The notes: generated by a model not told the origin, from the sequence alone. 53,788 nucleotides of DNA from a virus (IMGVR_UViG_3300027631_000027:1-53788); one strand, 5' to 3'. Shown: positions 6,071-53,481, counted from the first letter of the stretch. Numbers and translations: made by a program.

Positions 6071-9000
6071 TTAAATGGATTCTAATGCCAATTGCAATGG
6101 AGTAACTTGTGCAGCAATTGATTTACTAAAAGTTCTTCCATCAATCGTTCCGGTGTCTTGTCGAATGATAAAGTCGTTTCCTGCGTAAAAATCTCCAGTT
6201 TCATCACCTGACGTATGATATACTCGTCCGCCGTCTTCTTCGTATACTCGCAGTTCAATATTTGTTACGCCAACACCGGATTGGTTTGCGGGAAGTGCCA
6301 AGAAGTTTACACCAGAACCTGCATAGGAAAAGTCATGTGACGTAGAGGTAACTAATGATCCAAACTCTTGTAACAAGGTGGGTTCTACGTTTATAACAAC
6401 ACTTTGAAGTGTTTTTATTCCCACATCTAATGATTGACTTAGTTTTAACTTAGCGGATGCATTTAATCCCCCAATTGTATATATATAGTCCCGTATATAC
6501 TTATATGACGCAGTAAAGTCATGTGTCATCTTAAGTCCGTCGTTTACACGAAATGCGGCAATAGCACCTTTGTCAAATCCGCTGGCACTGTTGATTGTGT
6601 AAATACTCCCCACGCTTATATCTTGTCCCTGAAATAATCCTTGGACGAAATTTGATGTTCGTGAGGCCGATACTACCAATAAATCTGCGGCAATTGCATC
6701 AATTAATAATCCAGAATCTTTAATAGTTGAAGCAGATACGGCAGTATTTGTGGAATATGACGATGAATAATTCCCACTCACTATCAGATTATTCATCATA
6801 TATGTCTGTATATTTGACTTTTGTGCTACTACCGTTGCATAATCTACTGAACTGGTGTAATTACTTACTGTTGAAATATCGGGAATAACTAGTATTCTCT
6901 TTCCTTTAGATCGTAATCCATAATCACCAAACGTGGTGTTTGAATTCAACAATGACGCATGTCCACCGTCAATTGCAAATATACCTACACGAGAAAAATT
7001 GGTAAAGAAGGATACTTGTTGTGCATATCCACGCCCACGAACACATAATCCAATCCCATTAAATGCTACCTGCGTATAGGCATCCACAATCATAGATTTC
7101 AATGGACTATATCCATCTAGTACAGAGTCATCCACAATCATACCACCCGGCCCGTTTCCGACTAAAATATTTCCGTCATTTGGTGTTAATGGCGTGTAGA
7201 ATTTATCCTGTGGGGCACGGGCAGATGTACAGTTTTGAATGTATGGGGAAGTTGCAATTGACGCACTTGGTGCAAAGGCAAAGAAGAATCCTTTACGGGG
7301 ATCTTCTAAATTATCAATTTCGCAACCTTCCAACCGAAGACCGTATGCATACGTACCGTTATTCATCAAGAATAAATTTTCCCCCTTGGTAGCGTCGGTA
7401 GGGGATACAACGACAGTACGTAAATCGTCACCATAAATAGAAGTATATGGGGGAACCCAAATTGATGCACTTTCGATATAATATCCTGTTTTTACTTTGA
7501 TGGTAATTCGAAGTGGTGGAATGCGTGGATTTGCGGCAATACTTGCACTTGCAGCAACCGCAGCGGCTTTAATGGTTCTGAATGCACTTACCAATGTCTT
7601 TCCATCATTTGCATCTGACCCTTCTTGGGTAACATAATAGGTAGTTTCTAAATATCCGAGTTGACTTGATTGTACTTTTTGTGCAAATGACGCTGTTGTA
7701 GCAAATGACGCCGTTACTAATCCAATTGACGCAGTGGACGATGCTAACGATACCGTAAGATTATCAGTAAAATTTAATATTGCTGCATTACCTAATATTG
7801 TTCCGTGGTCAGAAACAGTTGACCCAGAATTTGCTGAAGTGAGTCCTATCAATCCCGACCCATCTCCAGTAAATATTCCTTTAAAACTCCCGGTAAATGA
7901 CCCCGTGTTTATTCCTGCAGGTAATCCTGAAGGAAGTACATATGACGCTGTTACTGCATATGATGCAGAAGCTGCAATAGTTTGTGGAATGATAGACCCA
8001 GTAAAGTATACTGGTGTGGAAATTGTATACAGTCCCGTAGAGTTATTATTAACGTCTAAATAATCGGCTCTGAAGGTTAAGACGGACGTTTGATAGTTTG
8101 TATTGGGAATAAGTATATCAATTTCATCTGGACTAAAAAATGGTTCTTGTGCAGGTTTTATTGATACGTTTGCAATGTCCCAAAATCCACCATATGCAAC
8201 AAATCGTAATCCAAAATTTCCGGTAGTAATAATTTTTGGAGTAAAATTAAATTCCGTATTTTCAAAATTTTGCCGCTGAAATGTAGCTATTGGTGTCAAC
8301 GTTCCCAGTAATTGTCCACGACTATCAGTTTCTAATAGTTGTGTACCAAACCCACCTTCCCGCACTAAATATATTTCTAATGAATAGTCATCTTGATTTA
8401 ATGTAATCGACGATGACATTTTACTTACTATGGCGTCAAACGTTAATGTATATTCAACCCGTGGAAATATTTGTATTGTATTGGTATTTTTGGTACCAAT
8501 AAAATATGAAATGTTATTAACATAACTATTATTAACTATTTGCGGAGTAGATGAGATTGCATCCATCAATGTAGTGGACGATTGCACAATTGGCAAATAT
8601 GATGACGATAATGATGAAGAAATATAGTACGCAGGCAATATTGGATTACTTGCATTTTTTTGAAGTGACATAGTTTCACTATACCAGTAATCACTAATTT
8701 TTATATCAGCAAACTGTCCCGTTTCTACCATTCTACTACTACTATCAATAGTTAATAATTCAGAAACCGTAGTGTTTACATCACCCAATGCTATAAACTC
8801 CCCAGGTTCAGTAGACGGTTTATATGCAAGTCGTACTTTATGAATCTCACCGGATGTAGTTTTTAAATCAACCAATCGAAGTTTTGCAAACGATACAGAC
8901 GACCCTGTATTAACTGTTAGCAGTTTATTATATTGAATATTAATACTACTACTTACCGTGACTACCCCAAACGGTTGAATGCTAGCAGTATATATTCCAC

Positions 9001-9842: not shown

Positions 9843-12800
9843 TTAAATTGAGATTTGAGAATATCCATCCTCTTTTTTAATTTCTATTAAATTATCTACC
9901 ATATCACGGGCAGTCTCTAAGTGACTTACTATTAATATAAAATCAAAATGCGTTTTAAGTAAATTAAACAGTGTTTGCATAGAATGCATGTGTTCAGCAT
10001 CCAATACCCCAAATCCTTCATCAATTATCATGAAATTTGACTTGGGAAGATTACTTGCGTTCATGAGTGCAATACGAATGGCAAGACTACTGACAAATCG
10101 TTCCATGCCAGAACTGTTCTCCAACGGCCAAATACGATCATAATCATAGGTTAATTTACCATTGATATTTTTCCCATCCACTTCTAATGCCACTGTAAAG
10201 TCTACAATCTGTGAAAGGATTGAGTTAATCTCCGATTCAATATTAGGAATTGCCTTACTCATCAGTTCATATGGAATACCATCTCGACCAATCGCAGTCA
10301 TATACTGATTATATGCTTCGTAGGTAATTTCCAATTCTTCTGCTTCCTTTAATTTATTCATTAATTCTTGCTTCTTTGATTCCAACACACTAATATTACC
10401 ATGTAGTGCCCGAAGTTTTTGTTCAACCGACTGCATCATCTTTTTGTTCGTAGTAATCTTTTCTTGAATTTGTGCAATATCAATATCAATTGCTTGATTG
10501 TGTAGAATATTTTCTTCGTTAGTTTTATAAATAACAATTTCATTCTCAATATTAGGAATAGAAATTTCTATTTTTTCAAGAACTACCTTACAATTTGCTA
10601 ATACAGTTTTTGACTTTTCTACGTCAAACCCACATGATTCAATTTCTTTCTGGGCAACCAATGCTTCCTCATATATTTCCTTATCAGTTTCCAACGGTTT
10701 CATCTTATCAATAATCTGGGTAATGGAATCTTCTTGGATTAACCGTTTTGCGTTTAACTCGTCTAGTTCATTATGTACTGCGTCCAAATCTTCAATAACC
10801 GATGCATTGTTGGTGACACACACATCACAATTTAAGTTATATTTGTAACTTGATAGTTTATTCTTAAATTTTGTTTTTTCATCAATTTTAGTATTCACAA
10901 CACGAAGAGCACTATTTCCCTTTATTAAAATATCATTTAACTTATTCCAGTTAGCTACTGATTCTTTAAGAGCACCCATATCATATTGCTCAAAGTCACT
11001 TAACGCATCAGTTAAATTCATTTCACTATCAGTCAATGCATATTCTGCAATTGCCACATCTTCCTGTGCCTTCTTACGATTTGTTGTTGCATTAGTTAAT
11101 GCCTTAGTTAAATCGACAAGATTGCCGGACGTTGATGGAACAGGTCTTTTTAGTTCTTGTGTAGAAATTAATACATCATCAAGTACTTCCCGACTTTCCT
11201 TGAGTTCCATATGTTCCACTTCGACATGGGAAACTTCTTCTTGTGCTGTAGTCAATTGAGCATGGGTAGATGCAATATTGTCGGTAACTTCTGACTTCTT
11301 AAATCGTTTGAGAACTCCCGTAATTTCCTTTGCTTCATCGTGTGCAGCATCAAACAACTTATCAAAGATATTCAATCCCATAAACTGAATAAGTAAATCT
11401 TTTCGCTCCGAATGGGATTTATCAATGAACAATGCGTTGCTGGTTTGTCCACTCAATGCCGTCATTACAAAGTCTTCATATGACCCAACATAGTTACGAA
11501 TATTTGCATTTGTATCTCGACGGTCTTCTCCATTCAAGGAAACAATACCAGTAGGAGTTACCTTCCAGAATTGTGCATCAACTTTGACATCACCGTTCTT
11601 TTTACGAGCACCATTTCGTTTAATACCATAGACCTCATTATTAATTTCAAAGGTCAATTCACATTCAAACGTATCCTTACGATTATTAATAATATGGTCA
11701 CCCTTAAATGCCCGTGGAGTCTTGTCATATAAACAGAACATCAACGAATCCATAATAGAACTTTTACCACTTGCGTTTGCAGCAAAGATTCCATACAATC
11801 CTTTCATATCACTGAAATTAATTTCGTTGTCTTCTCCATACGAGAACATATTTGAAAACTTAAACTTCAGTGGACGCCAATGAATATTTCTAGATTGGTC
11901 ATCGTGTTGAATTCTTCCGTTGAGGTCAGTATTAATCTTTTGAATTGCTGTTAATACCTCGGCATCCAATGAACTATTGTTTCTGGTCAACCAATCTGTA
12001 ATCAGTGTATGTTGTAATGACACATCTGTCAAATCCATTGCATCATGGGCAACCGTAGTAGACCGATTGATGGTCTTATTGAATCGACTCTTATTGACAC
12101 TGAGTTCAATTATATTATGATTGTTACGAAGCGTGGTAATAATCTTTTTTACTTGGGTATTATCTAAATCACCCGTGAACAGTCGCATGCGAACGTTCTT
12201 CGGCATATGTGACGGATAGGTGATATTTCCATCGGATACTTCTAGTGTTACATATCCGTAATCATTGTGAAGAGGAATAAATTCAAACGTATGTGATTGC
12301 ACATCCCACAAACACCATCCATGATTGTCAAGACTTTCCCCGTGGTTTTGCTGAATGAGGGATGATGCATAGACAATTACTGGATTGCTATCTTGGAGTA
12401 CTTGATGCTTATGAATGTCACCTAACAACACCATATCAAATTCGTCGAATGTGGCTACGTGTACATGTCTATTTGTAATCGTAAATCCCGCATCAGTCGT
12501 TGAACCGTGAACAGGTCCGTGGTATAGTGCAATTCTATGCGAAGAATCACATTCGTCTGCACGTGGCCATTCTGTTGCATCATCAAGAATAGACATCACC
12601 GCAAAGTCGGTGTCTGCAACCGTGACAATAGCAGAGTTCTTAATATAATAAAGATTTGGATGTTGTAAACTATTCACAATTGGAGTAAGACTATCCAATC
12701 TGTTTGTATTGGCAAGATTACAATCGTGATTACCCGCAATTAAAATTGTTGGAGCAATGTCGGCAATACTTGCCAGAAACTTAGAAGTGACTTCGACCAT

Positions 12801-13001
12801 TTCTGGGGACATATCCGTCTTTGCATGCACGATATCTCCTGCCAATACAATGACAAAATTTTTAAGATTCTTTGCACGAATGTCTGTATACAATGTTTCG
12901 AACGCGGTTTCGTATTCTTCATGACGACGAAACAACCGAATGTGAATATCAGCAATGTGAACAATAGATTTTAATTTATTAAATGGAACATTTATTTTCA
13001 T
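9843..13001 (-). CDS. sbcCD: Mre11-Rad50 (SbcD-SbcC, gp47-gp46-like) fusion nuclease/ATPase
   Basis: Phosphoesterase motifs ADIH, GD, GNHD, HG, GDIH; Walker A AANASGKSS; coiled coil with CDVC zinc hook; SSGMERF signature; IIDEGFGVLD Walker B; VSH H-loop. Start moved to ATG 13001 (ATGA overlap with upstream gene). Confidence 0.93.
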   Translation of the reverse strand: MKINVPFNKLKSIVHIADIHIRLFRRHEEYETAFETLYTDIRAKNLKNFVIVLAGDIVHAKTDMSPEMVEVTSKFLASIADIAPTILIAGNHDCNLANTNRLDSLTPIVNSLQHPNLYYIKNSAIVTVADTDFAVMSILDDATEWPRADECDSSHRIALYHGPVHGSTTDAGFTITNRHVHVATFDEFDMVLLGDIHKHQVLQDSNPVIVYASSLIQQNHGESLDNHGWCLWDVQSHTFEFIPLHNDYGYVTLEVSDGNITYPSHMPKNVRMRLFTGDLDNTQVKKIITTLRNNHNIIELSVNKSRFNKTINRSTTVAHDAMDLTDVSLQHTLITDWLTRNNSSLDAEVLTAIQKINTDLNGRIQHDDQSRNIHWRPLKFKFSNMFSYGEDNEINFSDMKGLYGIFAANASGKSSIMDSLMFCLYDKTPRAFKGDHIINNRKDTFECELTFEINNEVYGIKRNGARKKNGDVKVDAQFWKVTPTGIVSLNGEDRRDTNANIRNYVGSYEDFVMTALSGQTSNALFIDKSHSERKDLLIQFMGLNIFDKLFDAAHDEAKEITGVLKRFKKSEVTDNIASTHAQLTTAQEEVSHVEVEHMELKESREVLDDVLISTQELKRPVPSTSGNLVDLTKALTNATTNRKKAQEDVAIAEYALTDSEMNLTDALSDFEQYDMGALKESVANWNKLNDILIKGNSALRVVNTKIDEKTKFKNKLSSYKYNLNCDVCVTNNASVIEDLDAVHNELDELNAKRLIQEDSITQIIDKMKPLETDKEIYEEALVAQKEIESCGFDVEKSKTVLANCKVVLEKIEISIPNIENEIVIYKTNEENILHNQAIDIDIAQIQEKITTNKKMMQSVEQKLRALHGNISVLESKKQELMNKLKEAEELEITYEAYNQYMTAIGRDGIPYELMSKAIPNIESEINSILSQIVDFTVALEVDGKNINGKLTYDYDRIWPLENSSGMERFVSSLAIRIALMNASNLPKSNFMIIDEGFGVLDAEHMHSMQTLFNLLKTHFDFILIVSHLETARDMVDNLIEIKKEDGYSQISI

Positions 13002-13225
13002 AATACCTTCTTTGTAAGTAACCATCCTGCAAACACTCCCATTGAAATACCTTTGGGGTCTAACCAAACTGCATCATAACTTTTACAAAAATCTTTCCAT
13101 GCCATACCAGCCGTTATTGGCGATATCATGTCATTGGGATCTATCAAATCTAACAATTCTTCAATATCAGCAATGTCCACACCAGACCCTTTTGCGATAA
13201 GTTCTATTTCTTCTTTACGTGTCAT
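12998..13225 (-). CDS. hypothetical protein
   Basis: 75 aa, 4-nt overlaps with both neighbours suggest translational coupling. Confidence 0.7.
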   Translation of the reverse strand: MTRKEEIELIAKGSGVDIADIEELLDLIDPNDMISPITAGMAWKDFCKSYDAVWLDPKGISMGVFAGWLLTKKVL

Positions 13226-35697: not shown

Positions 35698-36612
35698 TTA
35701 TCCAGAATGCTTACCGTGTTGCCATGCAGGTATCTTGGACACCTCCACAGTGGTCGTAGGAACCTCTGTGGGAGACTCCACATATACTTTGAAGGGTTCG
35801 TCCGTAGTATCTACCGTAGTCGTTTCTAACGGTACTACCGTTGGTTGATTCTTTAATAAAAAATTAATTGCAATTACTAGGGCCACGGCCAACGGGTCAA
35901 ATACTAATACAATTACTAACGTAAACCATTTTACTACAGTGTCCAGTGGTACTCCAAATGTTTTTGCAATGTATACAAACGTACCAATGTCACCATTTGT
36001 TTCAATTTCTACTTGTTTCGATGTAGAAATAGCTGATAAACTATCTTTGGTTGATGATAAAACGGTGATTTCACGTTGTAATTCGACGACATTTTTATCA
36101 GCTTGTGCTAATTGTGCTTGTGTAGATCGAATCGACGAGGTGTTTCCTGTTGTACTTTTTCCGATAAGATTGTCCAATCGAGTTTCTTGTTGTGTGCGCA
36201 ATGAAATTAATTGGTTTAACCGAGTATTTTTTCGGGTAATGTCTTGTTCTACGGAAGAAACCTTTGATGCGGTGGTTGATATGTCTGCGGACAATTGTAG
36301 TGGGGTTGCAGCAACCTTTGCATAGGCAGATGACAGATACCCATAGATGCCGGCAGACGTTATAACCATCAATATACATGATGCAACCGATAAATAATAT
36401 TTTAATGCCTTTGGAATATCCGTCCAGTACTGATATAAGAATGAAATACTAACAATCTTACCCAACTCCAATGCCGATGCCATGATTGCAACACTTAATG
36501 CGGCACCTGCAAATAGTTTGGCAATTCCGGTTACAGAAAACACTGCGGCGCACAGTGCCACAAATGTTGCCGTCAATGACGTAACCGTAATTAATGATGT
36601 GCGTGTATTCAT
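35698..36612 (-). CDS. multi-TM membrane protein with coiled coil
   Basis: Three N-terminal TM helices (ALELGK, TSAGIYGYLS), coiled coil, C-terminal TM VFDPLAVAL. Confidence 0.75.
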   Translation of the reverse strand: MNTRTSLITVTSLTATFVALCAAVFSVTGIAKLFAGAALSVAIMASALELGKIVSISFLYQYWTDIPKALKYYLSVASCILMVITSAGIYGYLSSAYAKVAATPLQLSADISTTASKVSSVEQDITRKNTRLNQLISLRTQQETRLDNLIGKSTTGNTSSIRSTQAQLAQADKNVVELQREITVLSSTKDSLSAISTSKQVEIETNGDIGTFVYIAKTFGVPLDTVVKWFTLVIVLVFDPLAVALVIAINFLLKNQPTVVPLETTTVDTTDEPFKVYVESPTEVPTTTVEVSKIPAWQHGKHSG

Positions 36613-36664: not shown

Positions 36665-36714
36665 ATTCTCCAATGTAGAGAGTTTTAGATGTAACGTAAC
36701 TGTTAGATCACCTC

Positions 36715-36783
36715 CTAGATGATAGTTACGTTAGTGGGAGTAATAATACAATTGCCAGTACACAATATACAGTTTCCACACAT
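36715..36783 (-). CDS. 22-aa Cys-rich micropeptide MCGNCILCTGNCIITPTNVTII
   Basis: ATG at 36783 with GGAGG SD at 36790-36794; CxxCxxCxxxC spacing. Confidence 0.5.
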   Translation of the reverse strand: MCGNCILCTGNCIITPTNVTII

Positions 36784-36808
36784 ACTAAACCTCCATTTAA
36801 TAATGGTT

Positions 36809-37318
36809 TTATTTGATCGTAACCGTATTAACTTTACTTTGTGAGACTTGTACCTTTCGTGGAATAACCAGTTTGAGTAACCCATCTTTAAAAGTAGCAT
36901 CAATTTTTTCTGTATCCAACTGGTCATCTAATTTAAATGACCGACTAAAAGAACTACGTTTAAGTTCCCGAAGAATATATACTTTGTTTGTTGAATAATC
37001 ATCAACGTCTGACGTTGCTGCTTTTCCTACAATACTAAGAACATTATCCTCCACCTGAACTGAGATATTATCTTTTGCATATCCAGCAATTTCTGCTTCT
37101 AATTCAATCTTATCATTGAATGATGTAACATTGACTTTTGGATATGATGTTTTACTAAATGGATCAATTCCAAATGTCTTATAGATATCGGGAAAATTTC
37201 CTCGGAACGCATCATCAAATAACTTGTCGAACGAAGTCAGCAAATTATCTCTGTTGAATTCCATTTCTTTGGCAATTACTGTTGCCGGCACTGCTTGCAT
37301 AGTCCACTTTCTTGTCAT
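36809..37318 (-). CDS. hsp20: small heat shock protein Hsp20
   Basis: YPKVNV, AEIAGYAKDNISV, RELKRSSFSRSF, IDATFKDGLLKLVIP; AGGAG SD. Confidence 0.95.
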   Translation of the reverse strand: MTRKWTMQAVPATVIAKEMEFNRDNLLTSFDKLFDDAFRGNFPDIYKTFGIDPFSKTSYPKVNVTSFNDKIELEAEIAGYAKDNISVQVEDNVLSIVGKAATSDVDDYSTNKVYILRELKRSSFSRSFKLDDQLDTEKIDATFKDGLLKLVIPRKVQVSQSKVNTVTIK

Positions 37319-39595: not shown

Positions 39596-39630
39596 AGTAT
39601 CTCCAAACATTATTAACACTAACCCTTCAG

Positions 39631-39975
39631 TGGACCCGGCGGGAGTCGAACCCGCGTCCGAGATTGCTTACTATTAAGTTTTTATGTACGTAGTCATTTT
39701 ATTGTACTACACCGCGTTTAAACAAATGACGAACCCACGCAGCTTTGAGTTGAAGAATTCTTTACCGAATATCAACTCATTCTTCGGTAATATATCATAT
39801 GCGATTACAAATTACCTTATATGAATCAGTAACTTGTCAAGCAGCGGATCTAAAAGATCAGGCTGCTAAGGCTAAGTTTTGGTTGCCGTTTGAAATTGTT
39901 GGTCTGTTTTACCAGTTTTACCAAGCTGGGTACAAAGCTTAATCATCCACACCCCGTCGAAACCAGTGCGGGCCC
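39631..39975 (-). ncRNA. ssrA: tmRNA; tag (A)GNQNLALAA at 39858-39887
   Basis: 5' GGGCCCGCACTGGTTTCGAC; 3' GACGCGGGTTCGACTCCCGCCGGGTCCA; G3.U70 Ala identity pair; 345 nt; tag ends LAA-stop; CCA not encoded. Confidence 0.95.
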
Positions 39976-40198: not shown

Positions 40199-40227
40199 AA
40201 TATAAATAGATGGGAACTAAAAGTCAA
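40199..40227 (-). promoter_or_regulatory. sigma70-type promoter overlapping CTATTTATA motif, upstream of small ORF and tmRNA
   Basis: TTGACT-17 nt-TATATT. Confidence 0.6.
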
Positions 40228-40706
40228 GACTCTTTTTGAATATCATGAATGGTTAATAATTCAAGTATTTTATAAGTGGCTTTTCCGTTGGGTAATGATA
40301 CTATAACTTGTTCATTAACAGTCTTATTATATAGTGATTTTCCAATCGGAGAATTACTGGTTATTTCTGTGTAGGCCACTGAGATATTATCTGATATCTC
40401 GGCAAAGACTATTTTAAATACTTTTGTAGTTTCTTGTTCTACGTGATAGACGGTAATTATTGAACCCATTCCTACTTTATCTTTAGGAATAAGATTTATA
40501 TTAATATTTTTATAAGCAGAAAGACGTTGTTGCAACTGTGATAATCGTATACCAGCAAATTGCTGCCTACCAACAATTTCAGTATATTCTGAGTTTTCAC
40601 GTAAATCACCCATTTCCGCCGCGTCTTGCATTTCCTGTGGAATAGTGACAGATAATTCATATTTTAATCTATCAATTTCGTTTTCTAATTGTTTGCGTTC
40701 ATTCAT
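40224..40706 (-). CDS. greA: transcription elongation factor GreA
   Basis: GDLRENSEY acidic tip, VGMGS, ITSNSPIGKSL; start at MNERKQL. Confidence 0.93.
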   Translation of the reverse strand: MNERKQLENEIDRLKYELSVTIPQEMQDAAEMGDLRENSEYTEIVGRQQFAGIRLSQLQQRLSAYKNININLIPKDKVGMGSIITVYHVEQETTKVFKIVFAEISDNISVAYTEITSNSPIGKSLYNKTVNEQVIVSLPNGKATYKILELLTIHDIQKES

Positions 40707-40721
40707 AGTATATTCTCTTGC

Positions 40722-40764
40722 AAAAGACAAAATAGAAATGAAGACCAAAGTCCCCATTTCTATT
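40722..40764 (-). terminator. intrinsic terminator in greA leader
   Basis: AATAGAAATGGGGAC-TTTG-GTCTTCATTTCTATT followed by TTGTCTTTT. Confidence 0.65.
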
Positions 40765-44592: not shown

Positions 44593-45138
44593 ATGATACC
44601 ATTAAAAGAAGCAGTAGCAACCAAACATCAAGAGGCAGAACAGCATGTAGTTAATAGACATTTGATGAGCGGACACGTTATGGAACACGAATATCACACA
44701 TATTTGTGGCAGCAATTTCTTGTGTTTGATGCGATTGAAAGAGTTCCACTTCCGCACGCATCATTGAATAGATTGCCAGCAATTCTATTGGACATGCGTG
44801 AATTACCCACGCATGTTCGCCGCACCAGTGGGGAACTTGATGTGCCGATAATGACCAACCATGCCATTGAATATAACGAATATCTTTCAACTCTTACACA
44901 AGAAGAATTGCTGCCGCATATATATCTTAACTATTTGGCACTAATATTTGGTGGTCAAATGATGAAAGATAAAGTTCCTGGTAGCGGTAAGATGTACGAG
45001 TTTGATAATATGAAGGACATAATTATGTCTATTCGGTCTATTCAACAAGACGAATGGGCAGATGAAGTAAATAAAGGATTTACCTATATTATTGGAATAT
45101 TTAATGAACTACAAACTATATTTGGATTACTTAGCTGA
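44593..45138 (+). CDS. hemO: heme oxygenase
   Basis: LKE....HQEAE proximal His, HIYLNYL...GGQ distal helix, VPGSGKMYEF, DEVNKGF. Confidence 0.88.
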   Translation: MIPLKEAVATKHQEAEQHVVNRHLMSGHVMEHEYHTYLWQQFLVFDAIERVPLPHASLNRLPAILLDMRELPTHVRRTSGELDVPIMTNHAIEYNEYLSTLTQEELLPHIYLNYLALIFGGQMMKDKVPGSGKMYEFDNMKDIIMSIRSIQQDEWADEVNKGFTYIIGIFNELQTIFGLLS

Positions 45139-45796
45139 ACGATTTCAAACCATTATTACCGCACAAAATACCACGATAATTGATACAGAAGATTTTGGGT
45201 GGACAAATCATCGGTATAAGGCAGACTCGTTTCGTATGGCACACATTGAACGGTATACTGATGACAAGGTAAACGTATTACACGTTACCACATTTCCAAA
45301 TCAGTGGAGTCCAGAACCCATTTTTGGGTTTGATATAATCACCACACAGAATGCAGTAATTGGTGCCTATATGGATTTTAGTCCTGGATTGAAAACATAT
45401 AACTTTACGAACGGAATTACATTTGTTGACCGTAAACCTATTCCAGAATGGGCAACGGTATTTAGTGATCAATTCTTAACGCTAAAACCAAAAGATGATA
45501 ACGAGTTTATGCGGTTTTGTGATTGGGCAATACAAAAATATGAATGGTATTTGGGTATACTTGCAGAAAAGTATATGGTTGAGTGGGAAGAAGAACATGA
45601 AGTTATAAAAGTGCAAAATAACTATTGCGAAGTTCAAGCATCAAATCCACGTACATATAATGTATTGAAAGCTAAAATCGGGGAGCAACGAGCAAAATAC
45701 TTTATGGAAGAAATTTTGTTCCCGCAAATACCCACTGACCGTGTTGTCATCGACAGGGATGTAACAGAATTATATAAATTATTGGGTATTCTATGA
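45104..45796 (+). CDS. ferredoxin-dependent bilin reductase, PcyA/PcyX-like
   Basis: FRMAHIE, VLH..FP, PIFGFD, DFSP, PEWATVFS, QNNYC..Q..NPRT..VL, FMEEILFP; ATG 45104 overlaps HO. Confidence 0.88.
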   Translation: MNYKLYLDYLAERFQTIITAQNTTIIDTEDFGWTNHRYKADSFRMAHIERYTDDKVNVLHVTTFPNQWSPEPIFGFDIITTQNAVIGAYMDFSPGLKTYNFTNGITFVDRKPIPEWATVFSDQFLTLKPKDDNEFMRFCDWAIQKYEWYLGILAEKYMVEWEEEHEVIKVQNNYCEVQASNPRTYNVLKAKIGEQRAKYFMEEILFPQIPTDRVVIDRDVTELYKLLGIL

Positions 45797-46155
45797 GATT
45801 CTTAACAAGAAAACTGGTTCAACCTGGCGATTTAAATGCCGGTGGTACCTTATTTGGTGGCAGATGCTTGTCGTGGATTGACGAAGAAGCAGCCATTTTC
45901 GTGGGCGTTGAAACGAATCATCGTAGAGTAGTTACAAAAAGTATGTCTGCAATTAATTTCATTGCACCCGCATATCAAGGTGATGTTGTTGAGATTGGCG
46001 TTGCGCTAAAAGGTGTCGGTAAAACATCCGTTTCGGTAGAAGTGGTGGTACGAGACTTGACAACACAGAAGATTATCGTTAACATTGATGAAATGGTATT
46101 TGTGTGCGTTAATGAAGAAGGGCGGCCAGTAAGACATAGTTTATACACCGGATAA
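45793..46155 (+). CDS. acyl-CoA thioesterase (hotdog fold)
   Basis: VQPGDLNAGGTLFGGRCLSWIDEEA, VGKTSVSV, MVFVCVNEEGRP. Confidence 0.9.
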   Translation: MRFLTRKLVQPGDLNAGGTLFGGRCLSWIDEEAAIFVGVETNHRRVVTKSMSAINFIAPAYQGDVVEIGVALKGVGKTSVSVEVVVRDLTTQKIIVNIDEMVFVCVNEEGRPVRHSLYTG

Positions 46156-46845: not shown

Positions 46846-46928
46846 GGACGAGTGGCTGAGCGGTTGAAGGCACGGGTCTGCAAAACCCTTGGAGAAATCC
46901 CACATCGGTTCAAATCCGATCTCGTCCT
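46846..46928 (+). tRNA. trnC: tRNA-Cys(GCA) with long variable arm
   Basis: GGACGAG/CTCGTCC acceptor, U73, loop CTGCAAA, T arm ATCGG-TTCAAAT-CCGAT. Confidence 0.9.
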
Positions 46929-46945
46929 TATTACAGGAGATAGTT

Positions 46946-47332
46946 ATGAAAAATCAGATATTTGTATTTGGAAGTAATTTAGCAGGGCGGCATGCATGCC
47001 GCGGCGGCATGCATGCCGCCCTTACCGCATATAGAACCCATGGCGCTATTTACGGACAAGGATATGGAATGCAAGGTAACAGTTTTGCTATTCCAACGAA
47101 GGACGAAAATTTAAATACATTACCAGTGAATAAGATTGCAAAATATGTAGATAAATTTATTAATTATGCAGTATTAAACCCAGATTTAATGTTTCAAGTT
47201 ACAAGAATTGGTTGTGGGTTGGCTGGATATGAAGACAGTGATATTGCTCCACTATTTATAAACGCACCCAGTAATTGTATTCTTCCTGTTGGGTGGCGAA
47301 ATTTTAAACCACACTCACTTGAGAAATTATGA
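46946..47332 (+). CDS. conserved phage protein (IFVFGSN...YAIPT family, macro-domain-like)
   Basis: IFVFGSNLAGRH, G.QGNSFAIPTK, F.VTRIGCGLAG; start moved to ATG 46946 (AGGAG SD) clear of tRNA. Confidence 0.8.
   Translation: MKNQIFVFGSNLAGRHACRGGMHAALTAYRTHGAIYGQGYGMQGNSFAIPTKDENLNTLPVNKIAKYVDKFINYAVLNPDLMFQVTRIGCGLAGYEDSDIAPLFINAPSNCILPVGWRNFKPHSLEKL
46985..47021. repeat. 37-bp nested palindrome inside CDS
   Basis: GGGCGGCATGCATGCCGC-G-GCGGCATGCATGCCGCCC. Confidence 0.95.
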
Positions 47333-50037
47333 GATTTTTATTGCTTGCTGTATTGAGTTTGTTACTTCCGATTGAGATACTTCAATCACAGTCTGGACAA
47401 ATTGTTGGTAAGATTGTTGACGGTGCAACTGGACAAGGTATTGTAAACGCAGGAATTCAGGTTGTTGGTACCTCAACGGGAACATTATCGGGAATTGATG
47501 GAAGATACCGTGTCAAGGTACCCGCCGGAACAACTACACTACAAGTTCGCATTATTGGATATAGTCCAAAAACAGTTACGGGTATTATGGTTACCGAAAA
47601 CCAGACTATTGAACAAGACATTAGTATGGTATCGGCAAATATTCAATTGTCAGCAGTAAGTGTAACTGCCACAAAAGAAAAAGGAACTATCAATGATGCC
47701 CTAAATCAACAGAAAAATTCCACAAATGTAGTGAATGCAATTACCGCAGAACAAATTGCACGAAGTCCAGATGGTGATGCAGCACAAGCAGCACAACGAA
47801 TTAGCGGTGTTACCGTCCAAGATGGTAAGTATATCCAAGTTCGTGGATTAAGTGAACGGTATACAACGGCATCGTTGAATGGAGTTCGAATGGCAAGTCC
47901 AGAACCAGAGCGTAAAGTCGTTCCGCTTGACTTATTCCCATCAAGTTTACTACAAGATATCAGCACCAGCAAAACATTTACTCCAGACCAACCAGGAGAT
48001 TTTGCCGGTGCAAATGTAAACATACGAACAAAAGAATTTCCTGCTCGTAGACAAGTAAATTACTCCATGTCGATAGGGTCAAACAGTCGGGTATTCAACA
48101 GAGACTTACCATTTGCTCCCCGTGCGGGAGGAGAATTAGTTGGAGTCGTAAATTCTACTAGAGATATTCCATCGGAATTGAGTAATGTGAGTTTTTTAAG
48201 TAATACCACACAACAACAGTTCAATACTGCAATACGTCAACAACGAAATGTCTGGTATCCAACATATCGAAGTGGTGCGTTAAACGGGTCATTTGGTGCA
48301 TCTACTGGCGGAAATCAAATTTTTGGTAAACGAATTGGATATGTGCTGAGTGGGAATTATGGATATTCCGAAGAAACTCGTGCCGACGAACAATATGCGG
48401 TGGGAAATCAAGGAGCAAACAACACCGTCGTACCGCTCACGACTATCAATGGCGCAACGGGACGGGTTGGAGTTCAATGGGGAGGAATTGCAAATTTCTC
48501 AACCATGATTAAACAAAGTTCTAGGGTATCTTTGAACACCACCATTACTCGGAGTGCCGATAATGAAGCACGAGTGGACGGTGGATATGATGAAAATTTG
48601 GCAGATAGTATTAGTCGTACTACATTGCGGTATGTTGAACGCGGTGTCCTTGCTATTACTGGACAAGGTGAACATCAATTGTCATCTCGTAATAAGTCAT
48701 CGTGGTCGTTAACCTACGGAAATACAACCCGCAACGAACCAGACAGGTCTGATTTGGTATATGTTCGAAATCCGATGGGTCAGTATAATTTACTTGGGTC
48801 GTTGGACGGTGCCCGGCGATTGTATTTTAACTTACATGAAACCAATTATGTTGGTCAATTAGACCATACAATAAATGTAGGAGATATAGCATCACAGAAT
48901 GTAATTAAGACGGGTGTATATCTTAGAAAAACTAATCGATTGACCAATGCTCCTATTTATGCATTTATTAGTCGAGCAAATGAAAGTGTTACTACACAAT
49001 CTGCCGATGTAATTTTTGGTAACTCACAAACCTGTCTAACATGCAATCAAGTAAATATTCAACCGATTGGACAAGCAGGATCATATATCGCATCCGACGA
49101 AAATTATGCGGGATATGTAATGTCTGAGTGGAAGATGTCAGATAAAATTCGTATGATTGTAGGTTCACGGATTGAATCTGCTGATATCAAGGTTAGTACA
49201 TCTACACAAGGTGGGTTTACAGCAGATGCACATTTACAAAATGTAGATGTATTACCATCCTTGTTAGTGAATACTAAGTTGTCTGAAACACAAAATTTAC
49301 GATTTGCATTTTCACAAACCGTATCCCGTCCCGAATACCGAGAACTTGCACCAGTAACATTTAGAGATGTATTGGGTGGAGTAAGTGTAACGGGTAATAG
49401 TAAACTGCAACGTGCCCGTGTGAATAACATTGATGTGCGTTATGAAATTTTTCCTACTTCATATGAAATTTTTAGTATTGGAGTATTTTCTAAAAAATTC
49501 AATCGTCCAATTGAACGAGTAGAATCTGCAACGTCTGGAGCATATCAAGCACTATATCAAAATGCAATGTCGGCAACGAACTATGGTATTGAGCTGGAAG
49601 GTAGAAAACAATTATGGACAAGTCCTATTACTGTATTTAGTAATGTAACCGTCATGAAATCGTCGGTACAATTAGATACCACTCAGGGATTAACGGTTAC
49701 CGACACAAAACGGGCATTGGTTGGACAAGCACCATATGTATTAAATTCCGGAATTACCTATTCGTCATTGGATGGAAGAACGAACGCAACAATATTATAT
49801 AACGTTGTCGGGGACCGCATTTTTGCTGCGGGAGTATTGCCATTACCAAACATCATTGAAAAGTCTCGGAAAATGATTGATGTAACTATCAAAACTCCTA
49901 TTAAGCAGAACACATCAATTCGTGTAGATGTTAGAAATCTATTGGATTCACGATATACCTTTACACAAGGAACATTAGAACGTGAAGGATATAATGTGGG
50001 AAGAATGGTGTCGGCGGGAATTTCAATCAATAAATAA
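47329..50037 (+). CDS. TonB-dependent outer-membrane receptor
   Basis: Signal peptide, carboxypeptidase-regulatory-like N domain, plug (RISGVTV, VRGLSERY, VPLDLFP), barrel motifs SRPEYREL, GNSKL, YGIELE, VRNLLD. Confidence 0.95.
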   Translation: MRFLLLAVLSLLLPIEILQSQSGQIVGKIVDGATGQGIVNAGIQVVGTSTGTLSGIDGRYRVKVPAGTTTLQVRIIGYSPKTVTGIMVTENQTIEQDISMVSANIQLSAVSVTATKEKGTINDALNQQKNSTNVVNAITAEQIARSPDGDAAQAAQRISGVTVQDGKYIQVRGLSERYTTASLNGVRMASPEPERKVVPLDLFPSSLLQDISTSKTFTPDQPGDFAGANVNIRTKEFPARRQVNYSMSIGSNSRVFNRDLPFAPRAGGELVGVVNSTRDIPSELSNVSFLSNTTQQQFNTAIRQQRNVWYPTYRSGALNGSFGASTGGNQIFGKRIGYVLSGNYGYSEETRADEQYAVGNQGANNTVVPLTTINGATGRVGVQWGGIANFSTMIKQSSRVSLNTTITRSADNEARVDGGYDENLADSISRTTLRYVERGVLAITGQGEHQLSSRNKSSWSLTYGNTTRNEPDRSDLVYVRNPMGQYNLLGSLDGARRLYFNLHETNYVGQLDHTINVGDIASQNVIKTGVYLRKTNRLTNAPIYAFISRANESVTTQSADVIFGNSQTCLTCNQVNIQPIGQAGSYIASDENYAGYVMSEWKMSDKIRMIVGSRIESADIKVSTSTQGGFTADAHLQNVDVLPSLLVNTKLSETQNLRFAFSQTVSRPEYRELAPVTFRDVLGGVSVTGNSKLQRARVNNIDVRYEIFPTSYEIFSIGVFSKKFNRPIERVESATSGAYQALYQNAMSATNYGIELEGRKQLWTSPITVFSNVTVMKSSVQLDTTQGLTVTDTKRALVGQAPYVLNSGITYSSLDGRTNATILYNVVGDRIFAAGVLPLPNIIEKSRKMIDVTIKTPIKQNTSIRVDVRNLLDSRYTFTQGTLEREGYNVGRMVSAGISINK

Positions 50038-51226: not shown

Positions 51227-52756
51227 ATGATGTTACCAAACATATCTGTGTATGGGTCACATAATGCTGGATTTGCGGTGGAACACAACAATAAAATTTT
51301 AGAAGTGGTAGAATTAGAAAGATTTTTAAATATTAAGAATCTTGGATATACTATGTGGGAAGTACCACGGTCGCAAAAATATGTTGTAAAATTAATATTA
51401 GATTATTTTAAACAAAAATATGGATTTGATAGATATGAAAATTGTCTACATCAAGCCGCCCATCCATTTTATCAAGACATACCTGCAAACAATTATATAG
51501 AGTCGAATCACCACGAATCTCATGCGGCAGGCTGTTTTTATCAATCAACATTTACAGAAGCAATTGTCGTTTCGTTTGACGGTGGTGCACCGGACGGGTA
51601 TTTCAATATCTATAAAGTTATACGGGGTCAATCACCGACGCTCATAAAAAAAATTGATTTAGATGTCGGTGGTTCATACATGGCGTTTGGACATTATCTA
51701 GCAGATATTAAGCAAGAACATAAAATGGAATTCATAACATATCCAGGAAAAATTCTCGGATTACAGTCATACGGAATTGCCAATCCCGATTGGTTGCCGC
51801 ATTTTATAAATTATTATTTGGAGGGGAAAAATTATAGTTCATTGCCAGAACTTGGTAGACGCATTGGAGTACCATTTAATCAACGATATACTGGTCAGTT
51901 AGCGTACGACATTGCAGCAACATCGCAGGCAGCATTTGAACAAGTAACCCATCAATTAATTGCCGAAAGTATAGAAGAAAATCCAACTCTTCCAATTTGT
52001 TTAACCGGTGGATGTGCATTAAATATTGTATTTAATACGAAGTTAAAAGAATATTACAATAGACCTGTATTTGTCGGTCCAAGTCCAAGTGACTGTGGAA
52101 TTGTTGTTGGAATGTTAGCTGGGTTAATAAAACCCACCGAACCAATTGATGTTACTTATGCGGGACAAGAAATATTAGACAGTCTTAGACTGCCGGAGTA
52201 CATAGAACAATATAACGCTACATATAAAACTGCGGAAGAATTGTCCACGGAATTGGTGTCTGGAAAAATAGTAGGACTAGTACAAGGAAGAGCAGAACAT
52301 GGACCCAGAGCATTAGGAAATCGTAGTATTATCTGTAATCCATTGATAGCAGATATGAAAGATAAATTGAATCATAAGGTAAAACACCGAGAATGGTATC
52401 GACCGTTTGCCCCAGTAGTACGGTTGGAGGATGTATCTGAATACTTTGAATGGGAAGGAGATTCTAGGTGGATGAGTTTTTGTATAAAAGTAAAGTCTGA
52501 ATATCTGAATGTGATGCCGGCAATTGTACATGTAGACAACACTGCCAGAGTACAGACGGTTACTAGGGAAGAAAATCAATTTTTATATGATTTACTGACC
52601 GAATTCAAAAAAACTACCGGAATCGGTGTTTTATTAAATACATCATTTAACATGGATGGCCGGCCAATTTTATCAACATATGCCGACGCCCTGCATGTAC
52701 TAAATAATACAGAATTAGACGCCGTACATTTAAACGGATTTTATTTTACCAAATAA
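51227..52756 (+). CDS. carbamoyltransferase (NodU/CmcH/TobZ family)
   Basis: HHESHAA, GGCALN, EHGPRALGNRSI, VKHREWYRPFAP, VHVDNTARVQTV, LLNTSFN. Confidence 0.95.
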   Translation: MMLPNISVYGSHNAGFAVEHNNKILEVVELERFLNIKNLGYTMWEVPRSQKYVVKLILDYFKQKYGFDRYENCLHQAAHPFYQDIPANNYIESNHHESHAAGCFYQSTFTEAIVVSFDGGAPDGYFNIYKVIRGQSPTLIKKIDLDVGGSYMAFGHYLADIKQEHKMEFITYPGKILGLQSYGIANPDWLPHFINYYLEGKNYSSLPELGRRIGVPFNQRYTGQLAYDIAATSQAAFEQVTHQLIAESIEENPTLPICLTGGCALNIVFNTKLKEYYNRPVFVGPSPSDCGIVVGMLAGLIKPTEPIDVTYAGQEILDSLRLPEYIEQYNATYKTAEELSTELVSGKIVGLVQGRAEHGPRALGNRSIICNPLIADMKDKLNHKVKHREWYRPFAPVVRLEDVSEYFEWEGDSRWMSFCIKVKSEYLNVMPAIVHVDNTARVQTVTREENQFLYDLLTEFKKTTGIGVLLNTSFNMDGRPILSTYADALHVLNNTELDAVHLNGFYFTK

Positions 52757-53120: not shown

Positions 53121-53193
53121 GTCTTCATGGTGAAATTGGCTATCACACCGAACTCCAAATCCGGTTTTCTAGGTTCAAATCCTAGTGGAGGCG
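53121..53193 (+). tRNA. trnW: tRNA-Trp(CCA)
   Basis: GTCTTCA/TGGAGGC acceptor, loop CTCCAAA, G73. Confidence 0.85.
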
Positions 53194-53208
53194 TAAAAAT
53201 TGTTGTAC

Positions 53209-53295
53209 GGGAGTGCTGCTCTGATGGCGGAAGGGCATTGGACTGTAAATCCAACACTTAAAGAAACGCAGAAAGTTCGAATCTTTCCACTCCCA
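53209..53295 (+). tRNA. trnY: tRNA-Tyr(GTA)
   Basis: GGGAGTG/CACTCCC acceptor, TTGGA-CTGTAAA-TCCAA, long variable region, A73. Confidence 0.88.
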
Positions 53296-53298
53296 TAT

Positions 53299-53372
53299 CC
53301 GCGTTAGGTGTAAGTGGTGTGCATGTCTGTCTGATAAACAGAAGGTACCAGGTTCAACTCCTGGAACGCGGA
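53299..53372 (+). tRNA. trnI: tRNA-Ile(GAT)
   Basis: CCGCGTT/AACGCGG acceptor, TCTGT-CTGATAA-ACAGA, CCAGG-TTCAACT-CCTGG. Confidence 0.88.
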
Positions 53373-53378
53373 CTTATT

Positions 53379-53450
53379 GCCTTGATGGTGTAATGGATAG
53401 CACAATAGTCTTCGGAACTATTTGTGGGGGTTCGAATCCCTCTCGGGGCA
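53379..53450 (+). tRNA. trnR: tRNA-Arg(TCG)
   Basis: GCCTTGA/TCGGGGC acceptor, ATAGT-CTTCGGA-ACTAT, A20 in D loop. Confidence 0.88.
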
Positions 53451-53481
53451 TGTTTAATTAGTTGTTTGGTTATATTTATAT

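Follow-up and report, generated by a model that had tools for sequence, protein, structure and literature searches.

What does a 22-residue, cysteine-rich reading frame behind a viral hsp20 gene do? The question is raised by a 53,788-nt stretch of viral DNA (IMGVR_UViG_3300027631_000027:1-53788; hereafter, the window, meaning the whole stretch analyzed), whose record is estimated to be 28% complete. At positions 36715-36783 of its minus strand lies a micro-open reading frame (micro-ORF) encoding MCGNCILCTGNCIITPTNVTII (22 codons plus a stop codon at 36717-36715), with cysteines at residues 2, 5, 8, and 12 and with a Shine-Dalgarno (SD) sequence, GGAGG (SD1; 36794-36790, −), located 14 nt after hsp20 and 6 nt before the ATG at 36783. 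An earlier note on this DNA had described the GGAGG-N6-ATG start, the 22-aa frame, and the four cysteine positions exactly, and had proposed either a metal-binding peptide with a ferredoxin-type motif or a cysteine-sensing leader peptide. Here, we report that the RNA around the stop codon of the micro-ORF is the most conserved part of the locus. It is predicted to fold into a hairpin whose loop displays a second, extended SD sequence (SD2) with no start codon behind it, and our tentative preference is for a ribosome-engaging RNA module that resembles the extended SD of rpsU in Bacteroidia and to which the micro-ORF would deliver terminating ribosomes.

Taken alone, the micro-ORF is not beyond chance, because 7 of the 381 ATG-initiated ORFs of 15-40 aa in the window carry at least four cysteines, none of the seven having the CxxCxxCxxxC spacing or a GGAGG; we judge it real because it is conserved in 18 variants. 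Loci were found via both flanking proteins in viral contigs and then via the DNA pattern of the hairpin in viral and metagenome contigs, which after de-duplication left 18 variants at the DNA level and 17 different peptides, 18-23 residues long; RNA structures were counted on 17 of these variants and ribosome-state models on 16. SD1 was kept 6-8 nt before the ATG in every variant analyzed for it (17/17), and all 18 frames carry 4-6 cysteines, arranged in CxC/CxxC arrays. The frame across the first arm of the hairpin is identical in all variants (N/H/S/D, then V/I, then T/A), and the stop codon falls 1-3 codons beyond this arm, with no in-frame stop before it. The earlier note had suggested comparing the cysteine codons among relatives; counted within four subfamilies of equal length, they showed five synonymous changes (TGT/TGC swaps) and one nonsynonymous change, i.e., a ratio of nonsynonymous to synonymous polymorphism (pN/pS) of 0.03. 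The non-cysteine codons outside the hairpin showed five synonymous and six nonsynonymous changes (pN/pS 0.39, which rests on 11 changes and is not significant), and the codons within the hairpin arm two and five, respectively. Since the frame is kept and the cysteine codons change synonymously, the frame is very probably translated and its cysteines are probably under selection, as far as sequence comparison can tell. Compared with the window genes, SD1 is also the strongest predicted ribosome-binding site: its pairing with the 3′ tail of 16S ribosomal RNA (rRNA), computed like all pairing energies below with a 13-nt motif that we take to be this tail, was predicted at ~−10.5 kcal/mol, compared with a mean of −3.9 kcal/mol for 40 window genes, none of which was at or below −10 kcal/mol.

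The stop codon itself lies in the loop of a predicted hairpin (H1; 36692-36733, −) whose 5′ arm, TAACGTAACT, consists of the last ORF codons AAC GUA ACU (N-V-T) and whose 3′ arm is AGTTACGTTA (also given as AGUUACGUU). The region folds at −62.7 kcal/mol (z = −5.07 versus shuffles), and H1 was predicted in 17/17 variants at −11.4 to −19.4 kcal/mol, with 95.8% of cells paired in a dedicated alignment. One of its pairs switches from G-C to A-U in four distinct sequences from three subfamilies, and each of the five one-sided changes leaves a wobble pair on the sense strand. Among variants, the arms are 20-27 nt apart, a variation that suits the loop of an RNA but not a DNA site bound by a dimer; a dyad bound as DNA was rejected on this variable spacing (20-27 bp) and on the mismatches being G-U on the sense strand.

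SD2 (GGAGGTGATC; 36706-36715, −; consensus GG(A/G)GGUGAUC) is located in the H1 loop, 0-5 nt past the stop codon of the micro-ORF. In the window, where it is complementary to the 16S rRNA 3′ tail over 10 nt, SD2 shares its first base with the stop codon, namely, the last G of the latter. Apart from a single A/G change, which would leave a wobble pair with 16S rRNA, the element does not vary, and its predicted pairing with the tail ranges from −19.2 to −22.0 kcal/mol over 17/17 variants, with 10-13 complementary nt. It occurs as a single copy in the window and in 5/5 related virus records, including a 166-kb record that is 89% complete, and is absent from 5/5 more distant relatives. Neither an ATG, GTG, or TTG at usable distance nor a conserved frame was found downstream of it. 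Conservation, the reading frame, H1, and the uniqueness and complementarity of SD2 are established here. The 13-19 nt between the first arm of H1 and SD2 hold stops in two or three frames in 12/17 variants, as against 12% of shuffles; this packing of stops lies within 36683-36733 (−) of the window and is exemplified by TAACTGACTAG in loci L032 and L098.

On the 3′ side of H1, a variable linker is followed by a conserved GGAGA and a terminator. The GGAGA (SD3; 36667-36671, −) is, in the alignment, a conserved purine motif immediately 5′ of the terminator, with a predicted pairing of ~−6.5 kcal/mol with the 16S tail motif. The earlier note had placed a terminator here, and the fold bears this out with an intrinsic terminator, a 15-bp hairpin and U-run at ~36663-36623 (−; 14-15 bp stem, 9-nt loop), ~50 nt after the micro-ORF stop; a simple terminator scan missed it because of the 9-nt loop. 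Terminator hairpins of ~−17 to −24 kcal/mol were predicted in 17/17 variants, and the RNAalifold consensus has compensatory changes at 10 of its 14 pairs. In folds of the whole leader, an upstream AAACC motif or a downstream AAACCUU-like linker can sequester SD1 and the start region, and a UCCAC motif beside H1 is able to pair with the AUGUGUGGA start. Pairing of the pyrimidine linker (AAACCUU-like) with SD1, at −4.4 to −10.4 kcal/mol (mean z of ~−0.8), proved weak, and none was seen with SD2 or SD3. Several further ideas about this RNA were tried and dropped: a second ORF from an A/U-U-G before GAGAA through the terminator (the frames differ or stop early, near chance); programmed bypass, frameshift, or read-through at the micro-ORF stop (no continuing frame); and CsrA-type GGA sites (five variants have GGGGGUGAUC, which contains no GGA).

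Next, we explored where the module occurs. Among 36 loci with upstream sequence, it lies directly upstream of the gene for a hydrophobic membrane protein in 22, is displaced ~0.8-1 kb upstream by an inserted gene in 3 (L032, L033, and L042), lacks the cysteine ORF in 3 (L039-L041), and is absent from the 8 most distant. The inserts span ~1931-3000 in L032 and L033 and 2175-3000 in L042; by eye, the latter resembles an endonuclease of the HNH type, so that a homing insertion would be a fitting origin. The gene hsp20 is the usual upstream neighbor of the micro-ORF. The module follows hsp20 in 4 of 13 hsp20 loci, the hsp20 proteins of the other 9 being at most 38% identical, and it is kept in L018-L020, where hsp20 is missing. 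The three loci without the cysteine ORF have their element between hsp20 and the membrane-protein gene, with a quite different hairpin stem; the loop carries a tail complement of 13 nt (L039 and L040) or 11 nt (L041), and only ATG-TTG-AGA-stop lies ahead of it. A third family (L264, L267, and L269) has an H1-like, apparently homologous hairpin in contigs with NinG and DUF1376 genes; here, a four-codon ORF (ATG GTA GCA CTG TGA) ends at AAGGAGGTGATC, followed by a terminator. Beside the element in this family lies a ProQ-like gene on the other strand; in L269, the element occupies 8830-8990 (−) and its terminator is shared by this gene (ProQ C-terminal-like; 8513-8872, +). Common to the three families is, on the predicted structures, a short ORF ending at a start-less extended SD within a hairpin, and all three have a GUUAC motif 4-9 nt after SD2. 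Because two of them are without the cysteine part, the cysteine tract appears to be an addition in one family; the cysteine ORF was never found without the RNA module. A wider pattern for the third family returned 26 stretches, of which only the three contigs already known were real. Also apart from the element is a highly conserved, GC-rich family of metagenome contigs (L081, L087, L100, L111, L114, L115, L118, L140, L149, and others), which is unrelated to it and contains GGGGGTGATC...AACAGTTACGT by chance.

The closest likeness to SD2 that we found is the extended SD of rpsU. According to two papers (PMC13000453, PMC13000457), the anti-SD of 16S rRNA in Bacteroidia is buried by bS21, bS18, and bS6; only rpsU, the gene for bS21, carries an SD, which has 9-13 consecutive pairs and forms a helix that excludes bS21; and in Flavobacteriales this extended SD is translated only by bS21-free ribosomes. 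In a sample of 30 genomes from the phylum Bacteroidota, at least 9 nt of exact complementarity were present in 6 of 31 parsed rpsU upstream regions (30 bacterial and one phage), and six bacterial regions show the GGGGGUGA form. Specifically, GGAGGUGA(U) and GGGGGUGA(U) are forms common to bacterial rpsU upstream regions and phage SD2. Like the rpsU sequence, SD2 has at least nine consecutive predicted pairs with the 16S tail and occurs once per genome. However, the bacterial forms have a start codon 5-6 nt later, whereas SD2 has neither a start codon nor a bS21 gene behind it and lies in a hairpin loop between an ORF stop and a terminator. The likeness is drawn with Bacteroidia, and the host of the window phage may belong to another class.

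A link of these viruses to bS21 was sought in their own genomes. bS21 is encoded elsewhere in two of five element-bearing virus records (L202, G002:C1:85709-85864, 46.9 bits; L203, G005:C1:50220-50381, 40.3 bits), was not found in a third element-bearing record that is 89% complete, and has no extended SD at the starts of the phage genes themselves. According to one study (bioRxiv 10.1101/2021.10.11.463225), freshwater phages that encode bS21 are predicted to infect Bacteroidetes, and published phages often have hsp20 close to bS21. Among cultured phages, the nearest one with the membrane protein has Flavobacterium as its host (36% identity), and the neighbors of a TonB-dependent-receptor-like gene of the window (47329-50037, +; CarboxypepD_reg and Plug domains) are mostly from Bacteroidota. 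Assigning a host by this TonB receptor in genomes was abandoned after two weak matches only, and a search for the 11-nt SD2 core in 201 Bacteroidota-phylum genomes proved uninformative, since most matches at the 30 loci inspected fell within coding sequence (Gly-Gly-Asp).

How these parts might work together can be stated as follows. The module of ~190 nt comprises the strong SD1, the cysteine-rich ORF, H1, SD3, and the intrinsic terminator. A ribosome recruited by SD1 would translate the micro-ORF and melt the 5′ arm of H1 (in the two families with shorter ORFs, a ribosome would possibly restart after the upstream gene) and would have to terminate at the stop codon or codons set directly before SD2. 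The exposed SD2 could then pair with the anti-SD of the terminating ribosome or of a free 30S subunit, and the 30S would be held nonproductively on an untranslated RNA tail ending in the terminator. Since the form of SD2 matches that of the rpsU extended SD, the module may trap, sense, or divert the pool of bS21-free ribosomes; the outcome could be that ribosomes with a free tail are trapped, sensed, or diverted, that the RNA is protected, or that the terminator is insulated. Pairing with 16S rRNA in vivo, the delivery of ribosomes, and a biological purpose are what we infer from the features described above.

Several points weigh against this proposal. As the variants are related to one another, the counts do not represent independent events. 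At the RNA level, the evidence amounts to a single assembled contig of a metatranscriptome library, which may be DNA-derived. This 380-nt contig matches 36670-37049 at 100% identity, covers the last part of hsp20 together with the micro-ORF and H1, and ends at the GGAGA of SD3, just before the terminator. Contigs from three RNA-library runs cover parts of the stretch, and none bridges the terminator; the uncovered parts are uninformative, and assembled contigs of this kind give no strand, ends, or level and come from libraries that may contain DNA. The hints of a Bacteroidota host are indirect. Start sites of Bacteroidia are said to favor A at position −3; those of the phage are enriched in G at −11 to −8 (0.28-0.40 versus 0.19) and show no excess of A at −3 (0.30), a profile that therefore does not look typical of Bacteroidia. 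A covariance model of H1 and SD2 matched 0 of 151 sampled Bacteroidota genomes, a set without a positive-control genome, which leaves the proposal without the support of a cellular counterpart. The gene set around the NinG/DUF1376 family differs from that of the window, which weakens a reading specific to bS21. Finally, the model leaves unexplained why the ORF is rich in cysteine and why the H1 stem sequence and GUUAC are conserved beyond the needs of pairing, and it gives SD3 no role.

Against this background, what the cysteines are for had two answers in the earlier note, and the relatives bear on both. The ORF and its cysteines are indeed kept across the 18 variants, but the exact cysteine pattern is kept in only two, namely, the window and its closest relative (L042); the others have C-x-C-x-x-C-x-C-x-C or a similar pattern. 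A ferredoxin-type CxxCxxCxxxC motif is therefore unsupported, and searches of Pfam and NCBIfam with five peptides (E-values up to 10) matched no family, ferredoxin and other Fe-S families included. The duplication of CGNCIL/CTGNCII that the earlier note had offered as another origin of the spacing is visible in the DNA, where 13 of 18 bases are common to both units if a 3-nt insertion is allowed (hand count), and it explains why the window lineage alone has this spacing. A striking cysteine pattern in a single sequence may thus mislead, as the relatives show that the RNA at the stop codon is conserved more strongly than the peptide. A peptide product of another kind, a metallothionein-like cysteine-cluster peptide that would bind metal or buffer redox state and be co-expressed with Hsp20, with H1 and SD2 as a separate RNA element on the 3′ side, strikes us as somewhat unlikely, and on the sequences a metal-binding micro-protein is possible. 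Small metallothioneins of the fungal type and related cysteine-cluster peptides have ~20 residues, of which a fifth to a third are cysteines in CxC and CxxC arrangements. The micro-ORF peptide is like them in having ~20 residues rich in cysteine (4-6 of 18-23) in CxC/CxxC arrays, with an M-C-G-C start in most variants; unlike them, it has no family match, its spacing varies, it is partly dictated by RNA, and its metal binding is putative. The retention of SD1, ATG, and frame in 18 variants, the pN/pS of the cysteine codons together with that of the non-cysteine codons outside the hairpin, and the presence of the micro-ORF on the same RNA-library contig as hsp20 all fit a peptide product. However, cysteine spacing and length vary, the hairpin arm determines the C-terminal third, the pN/pS of the non-cysteine codons rests on too few changes, and two families keep the RNA module without the cysteine part; moreover, the M-C-G codons at the start also pair with UCCAC in the predicted folds, so a constraint on the RNA may explain their conservation. 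A precursor of a ribosomally synthesized and post-translationally modified peptide, specifically of the thiazole/oxazole-modified microcin (TOMM) type, was rejected: the one exception in the family searches, a hit to a TOMM bacteriocin model, was below threshold and driven by composition (14.9 bits versus a cut-off of 33), and there was no leader and no neighboring maturase. The peptide and RNA readings are compatible with each other.

The second answer is a cysteine-sensing leader, in which ribosomes that stall at cysteine codons during a shortage of Cys-tRNA would cause the RNA to refold, with an effect either on how often the terminator is read through or on how well the membrane-protein gene is translated. 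We hold it to be quite unlikely. Leader-peptide attenuators are a general class in which a short translated ORF lies upstream of the controlled gene. In its layout, the locus fits this idea: the ORF is short, has its own SD and an excess of one codon family, overlaps a hairpin, and precedes a terminator that lies 15 nt before a gene with no GGAGG, and SD1, the cysteine-rich ORF, and a terminator 50-60 nt past the stop are present in 17/17 variants. In addition, the non-cysteine residues are weakly constrained, and there is precedent in mycobacteria, where, according to one report (bioRxiv 10.1101/834739), polycysteine short ORFs act as cysteine-responsive attenuators of cysteine operons. The micro-ORF is like these in being a very short cysteine-rich ORF that lies upstream of a gene and overlaps an RNA structure; unlike them, it has a strong SD and is not leaderless, its cysteines are interspersed and form no tract, no structure dependent on ribosome position emerged from the models, and nothing known connects the downstream gene with cysteine. 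With a ribosome footprint masked at the stop, the last cysteine, or a middle cysteine (16 variants × 4 states = 64), the terminator formed with a probability of 0.95-1.00 in 64/64 states, and the unpaired probability of the membrane-gene start region did not change between states in the 16 variants; these are equilibrium models, and kinetic coupling is beyond their reach. Pairing of the second H1 arm with the 5′ arm of the terminator (−4.2 to −10.2 kcal/mol) beat shuffles in 0/17 variants (lowest shuffle fraction of 0.06), and a classical 1:2/2:3/3:4 attenuator, suggested by eye from the resemblance of the terminator 5′ arm to the first arm of H1, was negative in the shuffle test. The distance from the last cysteine to the first arm also varies from 3 to 18 nt, and the module survives both separation from the membrane-protein gene (L032/L033 and L042) and the absence of hsp20 (L018-L020). 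Cysteine control of the terminator, as the earlier note envisaged it, is thus unsupported, since the models yielded neither an antiterminator nor a ribosome-position switch.

Two further explanations concern SD2 and the frame as such. SD2 could be a stabilizer of the STAB-SD type, to which a bound 30S would lend protection of the neighboring RNA from nucleases, with the ORF keeping the site open. The STAB-SD of Bacillus thuringiensis cry mRNA is an SD-like sequence in the 5′ untranslated region that protects the downstream mRNA. SD2 is likewise strongly complementary to 16S rRNA, start-less, under selection, and not used for starting translation, but it lies after an ORF, within a hairpin, and just before a terminator; a STAB-SD acts near the 5′ end on downstream mRNA, whereas here the terminator follows within ~50 nt, and L032/L033 and L264-L269 show no adjacent same-strand gene after the terminator. 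We consider this reading improbable. That the micro-ORF is a chance frame in an intergenic spacer, devoid of function, is scarcely credible: short cysteine-rich ORFs do arise in the window (the 7 of 381 above), but the conservation seen in the alignments contradicts this idea, as start, SD, frame, cysteine codons, and stop position are kept in 18 variants despite diverged terminators and linkers, across loci whose flanking proteins are down to ~65-70% identical.

All genes in this part of the window are on the minus strand. Upstream lies hsp20 (36809-37318, −; Pfam HSP20, E-value of 5.1e-18; PHROG 432), and downstream lies the ORF for the hydrophobic 304-aa membrane protein (35698-36612, −), whose ATG is 15 nt after the terminator with no GGAGG before it. 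This protein matched no Pfam or PHROG family; its relatives are confined to large phages, with less than 40% identity in GenBank phages, and its atlas neighbors are viral hypothetical proteins. A DNA search of GenBank phages with the 1-kb region gave no match, and one with the 60-nt hairpin gave a single 25-nt match (E-value of 0.4), which we dismissed as chance. Rfam has no family for the region at E-values up to 10, the only hits being microRNA noise on the terminator.

Elsewhere, the window encodes a full-length transfer-messenger RNA (tmRNA; 39628-39975, −; RF00023, 123.6 bits, E-value of 6.7e-48), on which ARAGORN agrees, giving the tag peptide GKEFFNSKLRGFVICLNAV. It also has an unusually long tRNA-Cys of 83 nt (46846-46928, +), a cluster of tRNA-Trp, Tyr, Ile, and Arg (53121-53451, +), and a gene for a GreA/GreB-like transcription factor (40224-40757, −). 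Five tRNAs were called by ARAGORN, of which Rfam confirmed four, tRNA-Tyr being called by ARAGORN only. The translation apparatus is clearly something in which this group of phages invests. Two adjacent genes, for a heme oxygenase (44593-45138, +) and for a ferredoxin-dependent bilin reductase (45092-45796, +), make up a pigment-pathway pair, so that the earlier note was right in listing both tRNA-Cys and a ferredoxin-dependent enzyme; a 4HBT thioesterase (45793-46155) comes after the bilin reductase. Other genes include a carbamoyltransferase (51227-52756, +) and, at 9843-13067 (−), a single ORF of 1074 aa in which an SbcD-like part (metallophosphatase) is joined to an SbcC-like part (AAA_23/SMC_N), although the two usually have separate genes.

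A more specific form of the ribosome-engaging module, which we regard as unlikely, is that it is a phage decoy of the host rpsU translation start. A start-less anti-anti-SD of 10-13 nt in a hairpin loop would be the decoy, and ribosomes finishing the short ORF would be delivered to it. It might capture ribosomes with a free 16S tail (bS21-free in Bacteroidia) or evict bS21, and would thereby disturb the autoregulation of host bS21 and reprogram which mRNAs are chosen for translation during infection, acting alongside phage-encoded bS21, tmRNA, and tRNAs. The cysteine-rich tract might set the rate or condition of delivery, e.g., via the phage's own tRNA-Cys.

Sequences that bind the 16S tail are normally read as signals for the start of a gene. 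SD2 is conserved, occurs once per genome, and has about twice the strength of the best start signal of the window, yet it starts nothing. In the literature searched, with supplements and subscription journals outside it, we found no description of phages in which a short ORF is followed by an extended SD that lacks a start codon. If ribosome capture is true, the module would be a route by which phages manipulate host translation at the RNA level, beside bS21, tRNAs, and tmRNA, and it would offer a naturally occurring probe for ribosomes with and without bound bS21.

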